Shown here: piece after piece, positions 30,571-38,200 of the stretch
Position numbering within the stretch: the stretch's first letter is position 1
Layout: every line of letters begins with the position of its first letter
Assembly: GCA_000165425.1 (NCBI GenBank)
Contig: CT868119.1
Coordinates: 496,001-560,000, forward strand
Origin: Paramecium tetraurelia
Lineage: Eukaryota
Length of the DNA stretch: 64,000 bases
Direction: 5' to 3'
Notes under the pieces: generated by a model
What the model was told of the DNA's origin: nothing
What the model saw: the letters and a program-made list of their open reading frames with translations, nothing else
The model's database searches: none
Position numbers and translations under genes: made by a program

Positions 30571-32115
30571 TCAAAACTTGATCTATTTGACAATACGTGA
30601 GATTCTCTCTCTGGGGTATTTGGGTATTATTTTTGAAAATGTGCCTGGGACATACATGGTCTTGGGCAATTTAGTTACAGAATTGGCTATGGCATATGAG
30701 GTAGGTTCAGTGAGCATGTGTTATGGAATTTGTGGTTAGGAGACTTGATGTTGAATTTGCGGCAATTTCGATGTAGTAGGTGTGATCAAGGAAGAGGGTT
30801 CTTGTACCAGCAATTCCTCATAGTGATCGGAGATGATGGAAATGGTTCCATTGAGTTTTTATAATATAGAGGAGTTAAGAGATTGGATGCTTTGATCTCC
30901 GTTAATAGATAGGGGGATGGTTTGGATATTCTGCTGCTGGAATGGTTAGGGAGTTTAGTTTTGAGTGAGACTCAAATTCTTATTAGTGGTGTAACTAGAC
31001 TACAAGGGTTGATTGGTGATGATTGAATACTCCTCCTTGCTCATTTTCAGATGGATTTAGGATAAAGTCTTCTGCAATTCTTTGGGGTCTTTGATTTCAA
31101 CCAAAGAGTGTTGACGATCATTTCTCTTCTCGTTTTTGCCTTCTATGAAAGTTACTCCCTTTTGCAATTAGATAATGTCAATTTAGGATTAGCTAATACG
31201 ATTAGATAAAGTTGAAGGGTTACATTGTTCAGTCGTCTTCTTTTTGTAATTGCAAATAGATTCTAATTTCTTTTTATGAAAAGGGAAGAGATCCTTGACT
31301 TCTAAGAGCACTCTTTTTTCTTGGATTTCCTGATTAGTCTTAGGATAGCGTTCTACATCTGGTGGCTTCTGAACTATCACTCTACCCTCAAAATCGTAAG
31401 TGTATTTGGCTACGTAAGTTGATTAATACATTTAGAATCAACATTCAATCTCTTCAGTTGTCTATTCATCTCTTGGTACTCTTGCCTTTTTATTAGATCT
31501 TGCATCTGCATTTATTGCAAATTAAATATTTATCTTGCCTTAGCTTAACGCATAGATTCAATCTCCGTATCAAAATCAACGTCGTCATCCAGATCTCCCA
31601 TCTTGACTGGTTGAGTGTCGAATCTCTCGATATCCCCTTTACTGAACTGAGTGCTCTAAATTTTAGACTCTCTTCTAAAAGATCGATTCTAAATCAAGGT
31701 CCTCTTGGGACTCTAGACCTACCCAATCATTCTTCTCCAATGTTCTATTGGACATGGCTTTGGTTCGATCTCATCCTAATTGGAATCTATGCAATTGATA
31801 TCCTCTGTAATATCTGTTATGATCATATTCATGAATTGTTCTGTCCATTTGCAACCGAAGGGTACGAGTTAATTCATTATGTAGTTCTCCTAAATGATAT
31901 TACTTGCCTTCTGAATAATCTATCGACAGATGAATCTACACACGATGACACTTTCAGTTAACATGTAACCCAGTTGCTCATCTTCGTAATTCTATGATAA
32001 CAGTTCCAAATTCGGAAAATCTCAAATATATCCAAGTGATACCATATATACTCATTTACGAAAGCATTCGTTTTGGAGATCCGGATAAACTGGAAATTGC
32101 AACACTTCTTTTCAT
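30571..32115 (-). CDS. Hypothetical ciliate-family protein (EPKPCPIEHWRR and YTYDFEG motifs)
   Basis: Ciliate-code frame with a 20-nt intron near 31410-31429 and a first intron with GAG acceptor at 32021. Confidence 0.65.
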
Positions 32116-32139
32116 TTAGATTAAATAAATCAATTAAAA

Positions 32140-35100
32140 TCAAAAAATAATCTCACTATCATCATGAATTTTAGCACTCTATCCCTCAAAATATGCATAC
32201 TTTCTCAACTCCTTTGAAACCCAATATGGACAATCCGGAATCATTATCCCTAATAAGTATTTTACTAATAATAGCATGTGTTCAATAGCTGCCAACACCA
32301 ACACTTATATCAGTGGATTGCTGTCTCCTATCAATCCTTCAAACTCAGCCTTATTCACTATCCCTATGACCAGACAATTCATGAAGGTGGAACAGTAATT
32401 CATTAATTCAAAAATGGACAACCAAATGCCAATCGAGTCAGCAGCTTATGCTCTCTTTAGTATTTAAAAATCTTACTTCTCGCCTTAGAACTCTCTGATA
32501 ATTTGATATTGAAAATTGCAAATTAATAAATTGATTCAACAGGAAAAATAAAGGGGCTGCAGCAAAAGCAGGCGAAAACATAGTCGTGTATCCAAATTGT
32601 ATCGCAATGTTCGTATACTCCTCATACAAGTCCTTCTATGGCTATTTGTTATTGCTGTCTTCCATCAACTTCATGAACTCGATCTACTGAGCCTATTTCA
32701 ATTTCTCCTTCACATACTACATATCACAAATCTTGAATTATTCCTTGAAAACCTAAAACGTTTCAAATTGATCCCTCAGACCCCACTTCAAATATTTATA
32801 TAATAGATAGGGTAGACAATTACTTTATAAATTAGAAATCAAACCTCTTGTAATAATTATACTAGCCACTGATAATGCTAATTATGTCTAATCAGTTTTA
32901 AATAACACAGCATAAACTACTGAAATGTAAGATATCAAAAATTCAAACAAAAATACTTTTAAAACATAAGAATGCTGCATCTCAGAATTAAATCTATGAT
33001 TCTCCCAATTCACCACATATTTGCATAGACGCTTATATAGATCACATAAAACAGTCATACTAACCCCATTCAATGAATTAATAATTATGGGCATATACAC
33101 ACTTTAAGGATCCTGTTACCCCTGCCATTGATTGAATGCCAAAAAACTCACCAAAATTATTGAAAACCCCAACAAAATCACAGGAAACTCAGCTATCATT
33201 CTCCTCTTGAATGTTGTAAAAGAGTCATACACTTCAATTTTGCTTGTGCATGGCTCAACTGTATAAAGTCCTGTGTACATGACTCTCTGAGGCTCCTGCT
33301 ACTTAAACTTATGCATATCCCAAATGTATTTGAGTTCTGATTCTCTGTTCTTCCACTTCTCCATAAATAGAGTAGCCCATAAAGACATAAATAAAGCATA
33401 AGATGGCAGAATCGCAGCGCTTTTGATATTTTGATATCTTACTGAATTTTATCAGCAATCAATTGATATAATTGGATTGCTGATCCAACCAAAGCCGGTA
33501 TAATCAACCATCCCACTATTTACACATTAAAGGCTATGTACCAAGCAATAACAGGTCCGTAGTATGATGCTATTGAATTCAAAGGTCTCAAGGCGATCTA
33601 ATGAGTCTTTATTCTGATAGTATCTCTAATGCAATTGTATTGAAGATCCTTCCACATTTCATTAACTTTTAATGACTTAGAACTGTCCTCCAAAGGAAAA
33701 TGGGAAGTCACCAAACCTTCCAAAACAAACTTTTCCAAATCAAATTCCTCATTTAACACATTAATGATGAGTTATTGAATTTACAATGGTTTTGGGAATT
33801 CAAAATGACCATAATCTCCATACTTAAATTTCGTTAAATGCTAGAATAGGAATTGAATTAAATTATACCTTCTTTGTAAAGTGATAGCATTCAATCTAAT
33901 AGATATCTGCCAACTTGTAGATTGTGTCTGCTGACAACTTGACCACATAATAGTGATGCTTCACACAATGCTCTTTTCCATTTTACATATACTTATAATT
34001 TGGAGTATTTATTATGAGGAATTCAAATTCCATATTTCTTTGCTAGAATGACTGCCTGATATTCTATAATTACAACAATACAATGTCCTAACATATGTCC
34101 TAATTCCCAGAAGTCTAAATGACATACATGTATCCCATCAGATTGAAACTCTGCTCCTTCCCCTTGAGATAGTGATTCTCGTAGTACTTCACCATTTTTT
34201 CATCGAATGTCAGTTCTATTGGCATCAAGCAACGATGATTCAAAACATCCATTGAAACGCCGTGTTCTACTAAGATTTTCATGCACTTGAAATTATTAAT
34301 CTCAATAGCTAAATGCAATGCATTAGAAGGATTCTATTCAGTCATCATATTAAATGCTTCGACCTATAAGAGTAAGAAGTGACATTTACCTTGTTAAATA
34401 TGTCCTTTTTAATGTATGTCTTTGAGAATTGTCCTACAGTGATTGATCTATGCAATGTTAAAAGGTCTTTTAATTCCTGATACTCGTATTCACTTTCCAA
34501 GATTTATTTTAGAATCTCATACTTCCCTTTGTTGGCAGCAATGTGGAGACAATTGAATCCTTGATATTAAATTAAAAATGGGTTGCATTTGTGTTTCAAA
34601 AAATAACTAAAGAATTCTGTTGATTCAATTCTGGCTGACCAAAACTGCAATCTGCATTCAAATAACTATTTCTTCGTCTGGCTCTTTGTGTAATGGTAGA
34701 TAGTGTAGGTCTCATTAAAGGTGGTGCTTTTCCTAGTTATCAACTTCTATCCAGGTCTTTTCAATGAAGGTCTCACAGATCTTACTCTTTAAATATCCTT
34801 CATCGAAGGCCTGATATCATTCATTGAAGGTCGATAGTCATCTTGTGATGCTTGCATTTCTTGGGATAATTGTCTTCCAAATTAAGAAGGAACTTATGAT
34901 TATAAATATTGTGAAACCATGCATTTAGATTATTCAGATCGAGAAGGTATATTGTTAGACTTGAATAGTCTACCAAATTCATCGTCTGATTATAACAAGA
35001 CTCTAAATTGATTTCGCTCACTCTCTATATCATTCTTAGAAGTAATGGGATTTTCAATGTTTTCCGTAATGTTTTGATGAGGATCCGAGAAGATTGTGTT

Positions 35101-36178
35101 TGTTGGTTAGATAATTTTTACTGACGGAATCTTCTCTGCTTCAGGTTCATGAAAATCCTATTAAGAATCTTCAAAGGGGAGTTCATTCTGCACGTATTTA
35201 CTAGGTAATTTCTTCATTCTCTCCTGGATGGATTTGAATTATTAACTAATTCTGGAACTGATTGAATCCCTCTTTTGCTAGGTTGTACTAGTTTGGTGTA
35301 TTTTTGACATTAAGGTCATTGCTGTTTATCCGCATTGCAGATGTTAATTGATTTTATCTTAATCTATGCTTTCCAACTCATTTGCTGGCTCTTTCAGAAG
35401 GAGCTAATTCTAATTCTAATTCTAGTTTTAATCATTGATCATAACTGGGTTTTCCAGATTATTTGATTTGATCTACAAGGATCCCAAGGCTATAGTTCTT
35501 TGAGTGTTCAAATTCCTAATAGTCTTGAATTGATGACCGTCGTTTTTAAAGGCGTACTCTTACACAGTCTTCACAAATATCGCCTTGTATTTTTTTCTAT
35601 ATAAAATTTCCATAACTATTACTGATATTCCTCGGGTCTGTTTTCCAGAAACAAGTAATCGATTGGATACATGTCAAATTAGTCTAATTGATATTGCAGA
35701 TCCTGGTAATTGGATAAGAGAAATTCAATTAACTCCAAGTTTCCATAATAGTATGCCCAATGCAATGGATTGGCTCTTTTGTGTTTGTTCTCAGTAGGCA
35801 TTTTGGCTTTATGATCAAGAAGCAACTTGATCAACCTAAACTGAACTTAAGAATTATATTCCTTCATAAAACTTTAAATAGAAATAATATCACTTACCCT
35901 TTTATGCTAGCAAGTTCCACGGCAGTGTAGTGGTGTAGATCAACCTGGTTGAGGTCAATAATTTATGAATGCTATGACAGCCATTTCTCTAGCAATGCCG
36001 ATTGGCCCAAATAAGCAGCCCAATGCACTACATTTCGTTTCTCCTTGTCAACCATTTTGAAAAACGAGTTCAATCCATTCTGATTTTGTTGGAGACTTGA
36101 TTCAAAGAATGTGCTCAGGGTTTCAGCGTTGCCATCCTTCACCCATTCCAAAATTTGAGTCTATGTAATTTTAAACAT
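32140..36178 (-). CDS. Ankyrin-repeat anoctamin (TMEM16 family) protein
   Basis: N-terminal and internal ankyrin repeats (NVVHWAAYLG, NCLHIAANKG, NALHLAIEIN); anoctamin motifs PLNSIASYYG, WENHR, KVFLFEF, IQFGY, APLFFLLN, DSIGIW, IEH, IIPDCPYWV. Confidence 0.88.
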
Positions 36179-36367
36179 AGTGTTTAAATTAAATAATTTG
36201 GGAGCAATTTTATTTTGATTTTTCTCAACCAAATCTCAAATGATTTAACAGCATATCACAGGATCGTTATAATATTAAATGGTTTTTCTATAATATAAGA
36301 ATATTCTTGGTTTAGTATAATAAATAAAATATCTTTAAATTATGTCACTAGTCGTAGTTCTAATTTT

Positions 36368-38200
36368 TCAAAATTTGATATTCGATCTTAGATCCTTGAC
36401 AAACTATTGGATTTCAGCAAAGTCCTTATTTTATTAGATGATGTCCAAATAGTACACATCTATCTGTTCAATCCTTTTCAATCTCACCTCAATCAACGAA
36501 TCATCGGTTAGTTTTAAAGTGATTGAGTAATTCTCATAGATAATTATTGGAAAGTGCAATTTCAAATAGTTGTGGATCATATCAATGAACAATTGAGGAT
36601 GCTTCTTGGTTATGAAAGATAAATGATAGGGACCAGTGTGTTATTCAATTCCTCGAATATTGATAGGTTGTCTGGGAGAGTTCCTCAAGCTATTTAAGCC
36701 AGACGTAAACCTTTAGAGGATGTTTTAAGTGGATTAAGATTCATCAATTTTTAGACTAGTTTGAAATTTGGTTTTTTCCAAATCACTGACATTCTTAGTA
36801 TGAGAATAGAAATGTTTAGTAGGAGTTTTAAAAGGTGCTGCATTTATATATGATTTTTAATTTCCGCTCTCATGCATACTCTAAACAACTTTTTAAAATT
36901 ATGTTTATTTCATCAAAGTTGAGTATTATCCTGAAGGTTATTTTTTATGCTTATTATAAAAAGCGTAATTATTTTGTTATTTAATAAAGATATTTTATTT
37001 ATTGACATTTGTATTATGATTACTTTTAGGATTACAATTATTCGAAGATTCATGCAATGATTTAGAGGGTGTCTATCGCATTTTAATTTTATCATAAACC
37101 TATTTATATGTACAACTTGATAATTTCGATGTAGTTGATTTGGTGTTTGGAGACTTTGTAGGAGGAGATTTAGCAACTGGTGATTTAGCATTCCTTGGGG
37201 AATATTTAGGTAAGTTGGGTATTTCTTGATTATAAGGACTGTTTGGCAGAAATTAACAAGGAATTGTAATGCATCTGGCCTTAAATGCTGACATTGGGGG
37301 ATTCTAATGATATCGAAATATTAGACATCTCTTTTCCATAATTGCCACCACTTATGTCTTTTAATTTGCTAAATTGAATATCTTTTTTATGGATTAACCA
37401 CTAAAATTTTCTTAATCAGATCCTTGGCATCAATTGAGATATGTTTTGGGAAAGTGAATTCGGCATTAATGATCTTCTAATACAGATTCTGAGTATTAAG
37501 ATCATCAAATGGCAAATAGCCACATATCATGGCGAATAGAATGATCCCACAACTCCAAATGTCAGTCTATTATCCATTGTAGGGTTCTCCTTGTATCATT
37601 TCTGGAGCTGCATAACAAGGACTACCACAACAAGTCTTGAGCATATCCTTTTGAAGGTTGCTCAAACCAAAATCGGCAATGAGAATGTCTCTATCGCTCG
37701 TTAGCAATAGGTTCTCAGGTTTCAGATCTCGGTGGATGACCTTTTGACCATGGATGTACTCTAGTCCTGAGATGATTTAATGAAAGAATTTGCAGGCTTC
37801 GTATTCTGTTACTCTACTCATTTAAAATGAATTGTCTTACTGTTTAACTCTGTCTATGTAATCAAAGAGTTCTCCGCCATTTGCATACTCCATGAACAAG
37901 TAGATGTGGTTTTCTGTCTCAATCACCTAGAGATTAATCGATGATAAATTTTAACCTCATAAAGTTTCACGATTTACGGATGATGGAGGATCTTCAATAT
38001 TTGAATCTCTCTTTTCACTCGCTCCACGTCTCCCTCTTAGTTGATTTGCTTCTTCTCAAGAACCTTTACTGCTGCCTCATGGCCAATCACTTGATTGATT
38101 GCTTGACAAACCTTGCTAAATGTGCCCTGTCCAATAGTCTTCCCTATTACATAATATTTATGGTTCCACTACCTATTAAATAATTCCCAATCTCAGTCAT
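36368..38200 (-). CDS. AMPK/SNF1-related (CAMKL) kinase with C-terminal KA1-like region
   Basis: GQGTFSKV, HRDLKPEN, DFGLSN, KTCCGSPCYAAPEM, DIWSCG. Confidence 0.9.

Follow-up and report, generated by a model that had tools for sequence, protein, structure and literature searches.

The question raised by this locus of Paramecium tetraurelia is whether two clusters of ankyrin repeats (ANK) and an anoctamin (TMEM16) domain, which the original prediction had read as parts of one gene, belong together, and what a TMEM16 protein of such architecture, altered at its Ca2+ site, would do. The window, by which we mean the whole stretch of 64,000 nucleotides that was analyzed, carries on its minus strand a gene whose product (the window protein) has the N- to C-terminal order of ANK1, a polar linker of about 290 aa, ANK2, a cytosolic α/β domain, and an anoctamin domain with ten transmembrane (TM) helices (Table 1). 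The observation of a gene that combines ankyrin repeats with an anoctamin is confirmed as real. Removal of six GTA...AG introns (26, 26, 26, 28, 23, and 22 nt) leaves a coding sequence of 3888 nt, which encodes a protein of 1295 aa in the ciliate code (table 6; TAA and TAG read as Q), with a lone TGA at its end. The start codon at 36178-36176 is the first in-frame ATG past an upstream stop and coincides with the end coordinate given in the original prediction. The P. octaurelia protein P0001 (1291 aa) is collinear with this gene model, showing 32 differences composed of 28 substitutions and one 4-residue deletion, and its precomputed Pfam annotation lists Anoctamin together with five ankyrin families.

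Table 1. Features of the ankyrin-anoctamin gene, in positions of the window
Feature	Position	Strand	Details
Whole gene	32140..36178	minus	ATG 36178 to TGA 32142-32140; 7 exons, 6 introns of 22-28 nt
Seven exons	36178-35898, 35871-35623, 35596-34390, 34363-33869, 33840-33443, 33419-32477, 32454-32140	minus	
Intron 1	35872..35897	minus	26 nt (GTAAGT...AAAG); position as in annotated orthologue
Intron 2	35597..35622	minus	26 nt; absent from X3 RNA contig (place 35597, 26 letters)
Intron 3, within ANK2	34364..34389	minus	26 nt; absent from X3 RNA contig (26 letters, place 34362, equal within alignment slack)
Intron 4	33841..33868	minus	28 nt; absent from RNA contig (place 33841, 28 letters)
Intron 5	33420..33442	minus	23 nt; absent from RNA contig (place 33420, 23 letters)
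Intron 6	32455..32476	minus	22 nt; absent from RNA contig (place 32455, 22 letters)
ANK1, aa 1-196	35539..36178	minus	N-terminal helical cap, ~4-5 hairpins, signature NPLHWAYYYGN, trailing basic helix KKYKAIFVKTVQEYAF
Polar linker, aa 197-484	34675..35538	minus	NQ run; three RPS[ML] motifs, then basic stretch near aa 432-480
Conserved linker island, aa 310-340	35107..35199	minus	(E/D)DS..(D/E)..EPE.EKIP..K(I/V)
ANK2, aa 485-641	34178..34674	minus	Four helix hairpins; signatures GFNCLHIAANKGK and NPSNALHLAIE
Cytosolic α/β N-terminal domain of TMEM16 body, aa 642-830	33583..34177	minus	AlphaFold2 strand/helix pattern, model residues 169-305
Anoctamin/TMEM16 transmembrane domain, aa 831-1260	32248..33582	minus	PF04547
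Degenerate Ca2+ site	32510..32836	minus	S1072, S1076 (TM6); E1144, N1147 (TM7); N1176, S1180 (TM8)

The gene is one expressed Paramecium gene. Contigs of the X3 data set, which we treated as RNA-derived because they lack introns (the set is not on record as RNA, and its origin is taken from the missing introns), show the exact removal of five of the six predicted introns. They tile 32197-32834, 32807-34585, and 34559-35744, and together reach from ANK1 across the linker and ANK2 to the anoctamin domain. All but a trace of the 548 raw RNA reads (X20, X21, X22) have their first mate on the plus strand, which agrees with RNA of the minus strand, and RNA depth dips on either side of the gene (bins 36198-36371 and 32022-32195). 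A single gene with a single spliced RNA, as originally proposed, is therefore supported by intron-free contigs that cross ANK1, linker, ANK2, and anoctamin and by the stranded reads. Removal of intron 1 was not seen in the RNA contigs, where depth is 1.7-2.5, the contigs are tiled rather than one piece, and a contig crossing two genes would not by itself prove a single transcript. These points would suit an annotation artefact, in which an adjacent ankyrin-protein gene and an anoctamin gene had been misread as one. However, such a misreading is extremely improbable, as the spliced frame is unbroken, with no TGA over 1295 codons, and a spliced contig of 1702 nt joins ANK2 to the TM domain and overlaps by 27 nt a second contig that joins the linker to ANK1. 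Moreover, all 13 of 13 Paramecium homologues (1215-1293 aa) carry Anoctamin and ANK in the same order, which is also found on single transcript-sized contigs (3.3-5.2 kb) outside Paramecium.

The two ankyrin modules were examined with Pfam, searched exon by exon, and with AlphaFold2 models of P0001. Within ANK1, exon 2 matched Ank_2 with 28.9 bits (cut-off 27.3, E 1.8e-6) and Ank with 24.3 bits (cut-off 21.1), and exon 1 gave a weak Ank_2 match of 16 bits. The ANK1 model (P0001 residues 1-200; pLDDT 88.4, pTM 0.85) consists of stacked helix hairpins followed by a basic amphipathic helix (180-196), and its best Foldseek matches were DARPins and other ankyrin domains, with a TM-score by target of 0.75-0.80. 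For ANK2, Ank_2 matches of 24.6 bits at the end of exon 3 and 22.1 bits at the start of exon 4 are each under the cut-off, because an intron splits the module. In the model of P0001 485-1291, the ANK2 hairpins (helices 2-12/15-23, 38-44/48-56, 106-112/116-124, and 139-142/146-157) precede the TMEM16 body, and hairpins 2 and 3 are separated by an insert of ~40 aa modeled at low confidence. Both modules combine ankyrin profile matches with the stacked helix-hairpin fold, and the two N-terminal clusters (36178-35539 and 34674-34178) correspond to those first placed at about 35600-36178 and 34200-34600. A modeled complex of ANK1 (P0001 1-178) with ANK2 plus TMEM16 (P0001 491-1291), run without controls, gave a score of 0.31 and a mark of 0.34 and is given no weight for or against any reading.

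The linker between the modules is coding: exon 3 has 0 in-frame TGA over its 402 codons, compared with 18 and 12 when it is read in either alternative frame. Its composition (Q 13%, S 10%, K 9%, N 8%; net charge +9) is polar, but it is not strictly low-complexity as had been noted, with an entropy of 4.0 bits that is similar to other regions. The linker is fast-evolving. Identity to the old paralogs is 21-25% there, with 72-90 gaps, compared with 52-57% in ANK1, 54-59% in ANK2, and 61-62% in the TM domain. From these features we infer that the linker is disordered or flexible. Within it, one island contains the only 12-aa windows with mean conservation of at least 0.70 over 14 Paramecium copies (linker mean 0.43) and may represent a short linear binding motif.

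The C-terminal part of the protein is a TMEM16 body. PF04547 matched exons 5, 6, and 7 with 23.8, 204, and 60.6 bits (cut-off 28), which together span profile positions 1-459 of 460, and the AlphaFold2 monomer (P0001 485-1291; pLDDT 87.3, pTM 0.88) shows the TMEM16 fold of a cytosolic α/β domain and ten TM helices. A clade HMM of the cytosolic α/β region also matches anoctamins without ANK. The best Foldseek matches of the TMEM16 body were TMEM16K, TMEM16F, afTMEM16, nhTMEM16, and TMEM16A. TMEM16K (anoctamin-10; PDB 5oc9, 6r65, 6r7x-z) occupied ranks 1-7 (E 3e-28 to 3e-25, TMt 0.77-0.79, 20-21% identity) and was the best sequence match among solved chains (phmmer against PDB, E 2.1e-19). It has the same 10-TM fold and the same cytosolic α/β domain as the window protein but no ankyrin modules or long N-terminal linker, so the match is limited to the TMEM16 body. 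TMEM16K is thus the nearest solved fold, with nearness measured by match score and not by orthology.

According to a recent paper, the regulatory site of TMEM16 proteins comprises five acidic residues on TM6-TM8 that bind two Ca2+ (PMC12618243). Six positions of this site, placed in the window protein by alignment to TMEM16K, read S, S, E, N, N, S, whereas TMEM16K has N, E, D, E, E, D and the family N, E, D/E, E, E, D. Only E1144 is kept among the five acidic positions, the others being replaced by S1076, N1147, N1176, and S1180. The loss of the Ca2+ site claimed in the original prediction therefore holds in the sense that the canonical site is degenerate. Pfam detected no EF-hand, no IQ motif, and no other Ca2+-sensor domain in the window protein at E ≤1.

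Outside Paramecium, Pfam ANK was present in 6 of 149 anoctamin representatives, all at ranks 2-66, and the remaining 143 showed none; together with solved structures that match the TMEM16 body alone, this is in keeping with the earlier statement that characterized animal and fungal TMEM16 proteins are free of ankyrin repeats. Both ANK modules lie in register in P0017, P0185, P0186, P0028, P0079, P0037, P0024, P0048, and P0042, which are ENA/Logan transcript-sized contigs. The ANK-anoctamin relatives outside Paramecium share the cytosolic domain and a degenerate Ca2+ site, with Asp or Glu at the first TM8 site position in several of them, at an overall identity of 21-25%. The long linker is particular to Paramecium and the P0017 group, and in other clade members ANK1 and ANK2 are joined by tens of residues.

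These ANK-anoctamins and those of Paramecium form one clade in a FastTree phylogeny (SH-like 99; 134 rows) and in an IQ-TREE phylogeny (LG+G4, SH-aLRT 97; 45 rows), both built without named TMEM16K sequences. The four clade rows without Pfam ANK are all N-truncated: in P0042, ANK2 is still found by the clade HMM (E 3.6e-21), and P0018, P0026, and P0029 begin within the cytosolic or TM domain. Every full-length clade member found has the same two ANK modules in register. Throughout the clade, one or two of the five acidic residues of the canonical two-Ca2+ site remain, compared to at least four of five in 110 of 116 other anoctamins, as counted in columns aligned by hmmalign, of which the TM6 column is poorly aligned (E in just 61 of 116 non-clade rows). 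As the gain of ANK and the loss of the Ca2+ site each fall on approximately one branch, their co-occurrence represents a single event and not a statistical association. A further ANK-anoctamin, P0020, harbors an EF-hand pair inside the anoctamin domain (residues 975-1048), keeps two of the five site acids, and is placed outside the clade on a long branch, beside proteins with an intact Ca2+ site.

The ANK-anoctamin architecture is already auto-annotated in databases and was not found in the literature searched. No paper on an ANK-anoctamin fusion or on a Paramecium TMEM16 was identified in that search, whose scope did not extend to subscription journals, InterPro, and ParameciumDB, and the same literature yielded no functional, localization, or interaction results for any clade member. 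A preprint on HGT chimeras names an anoctamin only in a damselfly ABC fusion, and a Stentor preprint names one anoctamin and no ankyrin. Word-based homologue searches (alignment A1, with words drawn from the first 500 residues and matches mostly to generic ankyrin proteins; and P0017 residues 440-1290) gave no named ANK-anoctamin outside Paramecium. The original prediction named as a refutation that the architecture be widespread and characterized as that of an ordinary Ca2+-activated protein. This applies in part: the architecture is common to a whole clade, but the clade is uncharacterized and is not of the ordinary Ca2+-activated kind. An Atlas cluster whose 53 members all carry Anoctamin and 94% of them Ank (representative of 1742 aa) scored 0.89 against a lead threshold of 0.9 and is given here as a lead only.

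The window protein is most likely a Ca2+-independent, scramblase-type TMEM16 that is placed or regulated via ANK-bound partners. As the best explanation, we favor on balance an expressed TMEM16 of a distinct clade, with two ANK modules, a degenerate Ca2+ site, and a partner-controlled mechanism. Gating of such a protein would not depend on Ca2+ bound directly to the TM6-8 site and, judging by fold, the protein may be a TMEM16K-like, intracellular TMEM16 of the scramblase type. By analogy to yeast IST2, it might be constitutively active, or bound partners rather than Ca2+ might be in control. ANK2, located directly on the cytosolic domain, would serve as a fixed protein-docking platform, while ANK1 would swing on the flexible, fast-evolving linker with its one conserved short motif. 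Through ANK1, the protein could be recruited or anchored to a partner, be it the cytoskeleton, a further membrane, or a regulator, which would set where or when the TMEM16 unit acts. Because the long linker is limited to Paramecium and the P0017 group, a swinging arm would not be clade-wide. The window protein could also be inactive as a transporter.

IST2 is the closest functional analogue and not a demonstrated relative; it was absent from the best 50 structural matches. IST2 has lost the conserved Ca2+ site and scrambles constitutively without Ca2+, with a lysine salt bridge standing in for the ion, and it tethers via a disordered linker that also binds OSH6 (PMC12618243). The likeness lies in a TMEM16 body with an altered Ca2+ site and a long cytosolic extension, presumably unstructured, with a motif for binding a partner, which in the window protein is a candidate (PMC12618243). 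Like an IST2-type tether, the window protein has a TMEM16 body without the conserved Ca2+ site. However, three of five site acids are substituted in IST2, with the lysine mimic (PMC12618243), against four of five in the window protein with no basic replacement. With a site of S/S/E/N/N/S that lacks a basic substitute such as the IST2 lysine (PMC12618243), an open, constitutive state is not implied. The IST2 extension is C-terminal with a basic lipid-binding cluster at its end and no ANK (PMC12618243), whereas the window protein has a C-terminal tail of 35 aa and its long polar stretch is N-terminal, ending in ANK1.

Recent work on IST2 indicates that loss of the Ca2+ site can accompany constitutive scrambling and tethering (PMC12618243). 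A second, independent lineage with site loss and gained, conserved ankyrin docking modules would be a natural experiment on Ca2+-free control of TMEM16 proteins. TMEM16 research has been almost wholly devoted to Ca2+-activated channels and scramblases. For ciliate membrane biology at the cortex-ER interface or the alveolar sacs, the gene offers a concrete and testable candidate, and its host cell is genetically tractable; RNAi by feeding, GFP tagging, and electrophysiology are standard methods in Paramecium. Interest would be modest if the protein proved to be nothing more than an intracellular scramblase of the usual kind to which an adaptor domain is attached.

Other functions can be weighed on the same evidence. 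In an IST2-like contact-site tether, akin to the membrane-contact-site protein suggested in the original prediction, the TMEM16 body would reside in an internal membrane (ER or cortical alveolar sacs) and ANK1, on its ~290-aa linker, would grip a plasma-membrane or cortical partner and bridge the two membranes, with constitutive scrambling feeding lipid transfer and the linker motif recruiting a lipid-transfer protein. The polar, fast-evolving linker with its one conserved island is consistent with this arrangement, as is the nearest fold, TMEM16K, which is described as resident in the ER; IST2 follows the same logic, combining a TMEM16 that lacks the Ca2+ site with a disordered linker in which a partner motif lies (PMC12618243). 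Nevertheless, a tether of this kind appears unlikely, as the extension lies at the N-terminus and has ANK at its end instead of a C-terminal polybasic lipid-binding patch, and the long linker is missing from most non-Paramecium clade members. Alternatively, the protein may still be regulated by Ca2+ by way of an accessory sensor, with calmodulin, for instance, binding the linker or the basic helix that follows ANK1, so that the TM6-8 site was replaced and not abandoned. Paramecium channels are under calmodulin control, the basic amphipathic helix is predicted in a suitable place, and the EF-hands of P0020, with two of five site acids, suggest that relatives can outsource Ca2+ sensing. We consider an accessory sensor decidedly improbable, given the lack of a Pfam Ca2+-sensor domain in the window protein and the position of P0020 outside the core clade. 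The partner-controlled TMEM16 favored above can also be extended to a bolder and quite unlikely scenario, in which a protist TMEM16 lineage dropped direct Ca2+ gating at about the time it gained two ANK modules and handed control of the scramblase or channel to partners. The long linker of Paramecium would then be a reach-out tether (for example, from cortical Ca2+ stores or the ER to the cortex), making the protein an ANK-based, convergent counterpart of IST2, if not a scramblase gated by force or by contact.

The original prediction, upheld in part by the results above, had also drawn an analogy to TRPN/NompC and TRPA, by which the ankyrin arrays would act as a gating spring pulling the TMEM16 pore or groove open in a tethered mechanosensor. 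In its favor, ankyrin repeats precede a membrane transport domain in both cases, and the window protein appears to have lost direct gating by Ca2+. TRPN/NompC and TRPA carry ~29 and ~16 ankyrin repeats, respectively, in long unbroken arrays, and the membrane domain of NompC/TRPN and TRPA1 is a TRP domain unrelated to the TMEM16 of the window protein, in which no TRP or ion_trans domain was found (Pfam, E ≤1). Rather than a long uninterrupted array joined to a TRP channel domain, the window protein has ~5 and ~4 repeats in two short modules separated by ~290 residues of poorly conserved polar sequence, which is unlikely to pass force as a defined spring. With arrays that are too short and that a floppy linker divides, a NompC-like gating spring is unsupported, as is the analogy itself, and a tethered mechanosensor is very unlikely. 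ANK1 instead resembles ordinary binding domains of 4-5 repeats.

The minus-strand gene at 36178-32140 carries a real fusion of ankyrin repeats to an anoctamin domain, which is conserved, expressed and coupled to loss of the regulatory site that is the hallmark of the family. The region is AT-rich (GC 0.30-0.35), and its open reading requires TAA and TAG to be translated as glutamine (table 6). The start was placed at the first ATG past an upstream stop, 36178 on the minus strand, which equals the end coordinate of the original prediction. Six GTA...AG introns (26, 26, 26, 28, 23 and 22 nt) separate seven exons, giving a coding sequence of 3888 nt and 1295 residues with a sole terminal TGA at 32142-32140. 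Tiny introns of 22-28 nt are typical of Paramecium. The third exon contains the entire linker between the two ankyrin modules, ANK1 and ANK2. In-frame TGA occurs at 0 of its 402 codons, whereas the two alternative frames contain 18 and 12, so the linker codes for protein and is not a spacer.

The Pfam search was performed on each exon and not on the spliced protein. Ankyrin families matched exon 1 (Ank_2, 16 bits), exon 2 (Ank_2, 28.9 bits, and Ank, 24.3 bits, each over its cut-off) and both sides of intron 3 (Ank_2, 24.6 bits upstream in exon 3 and 22.1 bits downstream in exon 4). The anoctamin profile (PF04547) matched exons 5, 6 and 7 at 23.8, 204 and 60.6 bits, and these matches together extend over positions 1-459 of its 460. 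Two segments of the near-identical, collinear P. octaurelia protein P0001 (1291 residues; 32 differences over 1295 residues, comprising 28 substitutions and one 4-residue deletion) were modelled with AlphaFold2 from input alignments of relatives. Residues 1-200 (pLDDT 88.4, pTM 0.85) formed about five stacked helix hairpins and a trailing helix, with 4-5-repeat DARPins and natural ankyrin domains as the best PDB matches (TM-score by target 0.75-0.80). Residues 485-1291 (pLDDT 87.3, pTM 0.88) formed four hairpins, an alpha/beta cytosolic domain and then transmembrane (TM) helices; in ANK2, some 40 inserted residues of low model confidence separate the second hairpin from the third. Together with the coordinates, these results confirm almost to the base the two ankyrin clusters predicted ahead of the anoctamin domain.

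Features of the ANK-anoctamin gene in window coordinates, with regional identity to the old Paramecium paralogs P0006-P0013
Feature	Position	Strand	Length	Identity to P0006-P0013
ANK1	36178-35539	-		52-57%
Linker	35538-34675	-		21-25% (gapped positions 72-90)
ANK2	34674-34178	-		54-59%
Cytosolic domain	34177-33583	-		52-54%
TM domain	33582-32248	-		61-62%
Intron missing from X3 contigs	35597		26 nt	
Intron missing from X3 contigs	34362		26 nt	
Intron missing from X3 contigs	33841		28 nt	
Intron missing from X3 contigs	33420		23 nt	
Intron missing from X3 contigs	32455		22 nt	

RNA contigs from the run X3, examined over 31500-36700, lacked five of the six predicted introns exactly where predicted; removal of intron 1, where depth was about 2, was not seen in them. 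The contigs tile 32197-32834, 32807-34585 and 34559-35744 as pieces and not as one molecule, and because they tile intron-free, spliced RNA spans the TM domain, ANK2 and the whole linker and reaches into ANK1. Three paired oligo-dT runs with the same species label mapped 132, 254 and 162 reads over 27-29 of 30 bins, with nearly all first mates in plus-strand orientation, as is usual for an RNA from the minus strand, and depth dropped in the intergenic-spacer bins 36198-36371 and 32022-32195. The claim of one gene with one spliced RNA is thus borne out by the contigs and the strand-consistent reads, and the homologues agree. Upstream, the same-strand neighbour encodes a protein kinase domain (36916-37956, minus; Pkinase, 187.9 bits). 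An open frame at 36371-37429 (minus) without a Pfam match comes next and stops about 190 nt short of the start codon of the ANK-anoctamin gene. Over these neighbours the RNA depth exceeded that over the anoctamin gene. Downstream, same-strand transcription at 31500-32021 (minus) reached a contig depth of 31-52 versus 6-9 for the anoctamin gene, and its open frames gave no Pfam match. Three reads of X22, one of the stranded runs, have their loose ends at 31625, where this downstream gene may have a splice site.

All 13 Paramecium homologues (1215-1293 residues, five aurelia species) carry Anoctamin and five Ank Pfam families and lend independent support to the fusion gene; a fourteenth match was an insect anoctamin without this architecture. 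On the basis of the regional identities to the old paralogs, ANK1 and ANK2 are conserved to about the same degree as the core. Polar residues (Q, S, K, N) characterize the linker, which has a net charge of +9, three copies of the RPS[ML] motif and a basic stretch immediately ahead of ANK2 and is presumably disordered. An island at residues 310-340, (E/D)DS..(D/E)..EPE.EKIP..K(I/V), is kept in 14 of 14 Paramecium copies; outside this island, the linker is free to drift. An NQ-repeat run at about 35420-35445 (residues 236-243) is four residues longer than in P0001, an in-frame, microsatellite-type difference.

The lost Ca2+ site had been read correctly. In a phmmer alignment with human TMEM16K, the site residues S1072 and S1076 (TM6), E1144 and N1147 (TM7), and N1176 and S1180 (TM8) face N and E, D and E, and E and D, respectively. 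In hmmalign columns of 116 other anoctamin representatives, the four TM7 and TM8 positions were D/E in 115, E/D in 111, E/D in 112 and D/E in 112; alignment was poorer in the TM6 column, where just 61 of 116 had E. Of the 116, 110 had four or more of the five acids and 66 had all five. The remaining six (P0045, P0078, P0151, P0080, P0105 and P0114) are all non-ANK proteins, so erosion of the site occurs sporadically elsewhere in the family without ankyrin repeats. Position 1147 (32609-32611), Asn here, is N or S in most orthologues and Asp in P0001; it varies even among close relatives, which suggests that it is no longer constrained to be acidic.

A phmmer search with exon 6 against 1.84 billion representatives returned 2605 matches at E ≤0.001; all listed representatives except the Paramecium one, 149 in total, were scanned with Pfam. 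Ankyrin repeats were found in six of these 149 (P0017, P0020, P0028, P0037, weakly, P0048 and P0079), all within the 65 at ranks 2-66, followed by 0 of 61 and 0 of 23. A full-length alignment placed ANK1 and ANK2 in register across these six and P0024, with NPLHWAxYYGD and NTxLHLA as common signatures. Only Paramecium and the P0017 group have the long linker. Contigs of the relatives (ENA/Logan) measured 3.3-5.2 kb. Trees were built from TM-domain sequences, leaving out 23 rows that were fragments below 85% of the domain or the multi-copy P0015, as well as seven near-duplicate Paramecium rows and P0014. FastTree (134 rows) recovered a clade of 18 (SH-like 99) comprising 13 ANK rows, P0024 and four others, and IQ-TREE under LG+G4 (45 rows) recovered the same clade (SH-aLRT 97). 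The four others lack their N-termini: P0042 begins within ANK2 (clade HMM E 3.6e-21), and P0018, P0026 and P0029 begin inside the cytosolic or TM domain. Every clade row retains one or two of the five acids. P0020 fell outside the clade: its long branch neighbours P0110 and P0023, both with all five acids, a placement compatible with more than one order and number of events. This 1314-residue protein retains two of five acids and has an EF-hand pair (residues 975-1048) inserted inside its anoctamin domain (610-1259), to which Ca2+ sensing may have moved. C-terminal EF-hand pairs were also observed in two anoctamins without ankyrin repeats, P0051 (964 residues) and P0138 (699 residues), paired in the tree with support of 100. 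P0015 (2374 residues), with five matched anoctamin stretches (1214 bits), may represent a tandem anoctamin, a concatenated one, or a chimera of assembly or annotation.

TMEM16K is closest to the TMEM16 body in sequence (phmmer E 2.1e-19) and in fold, occupying Foldseek ranks 1-7 (E 3e-28 to 3e-25, TMt 0.77-0.79), followed by TMEM16F and fungal scramblases and then TMEM16A at rank 26. We somewhat favor an adaptor-regulated, Ca2+-independent TMEM16 protein. In such a protein, Ca2+ would not act as the gating signal at TM6-8. ANK2 directly adjoins the cytosolic domain and was co-modelled with it at pTM 0.88; it would serve as a fixed docking surface, and ANK1 on its linker would recruit or anchor a partner that determines the place or the activity of the protein. 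By analogy, the nearest functional precedent is yeast IST2, for which PMC12618243 describes a TMEM16 part without conserved Ca2+-site residues, constitutive lipid scrambling, and a long unstructured C-terminus that reaches across to the plasma membrane and interacts with OSH6. The two share a lost site and a long polar extension with a conserved motif inside it; however, the extension studied here is N-terminal and ends in ankyrin repeats, whereas that of IST2 ends in a basic lipid-binding cluster, and the Paramecium protein has no lysine standing in for Ca2+. An IST2-like contact-site tether is a possible but less probable reading.

Regulation through an accessory Ca2+ sensor is rather unlikely: the insert of P0020 shows that relatives can adopt this solution, but Pfam found no such domain in the window protein. 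The NompC-like gating spring of the original prediction is unsupported and quite improbable, because a floppy linker divides the arrays, which are short and resemble ordinary binding modules. An artefact of the gene model, against which the spliced RNA and the homologues speak, is extremely improbable.

A literature search that covered few subscription journals turned up neither an ANK-TMEM16 fusion nor any Paramecium TMEM16. The architecture is already in public records through automatic Pfam annotation of Paramecium proteins, and one Atlas cluster, taken as a lead only, also displays it.
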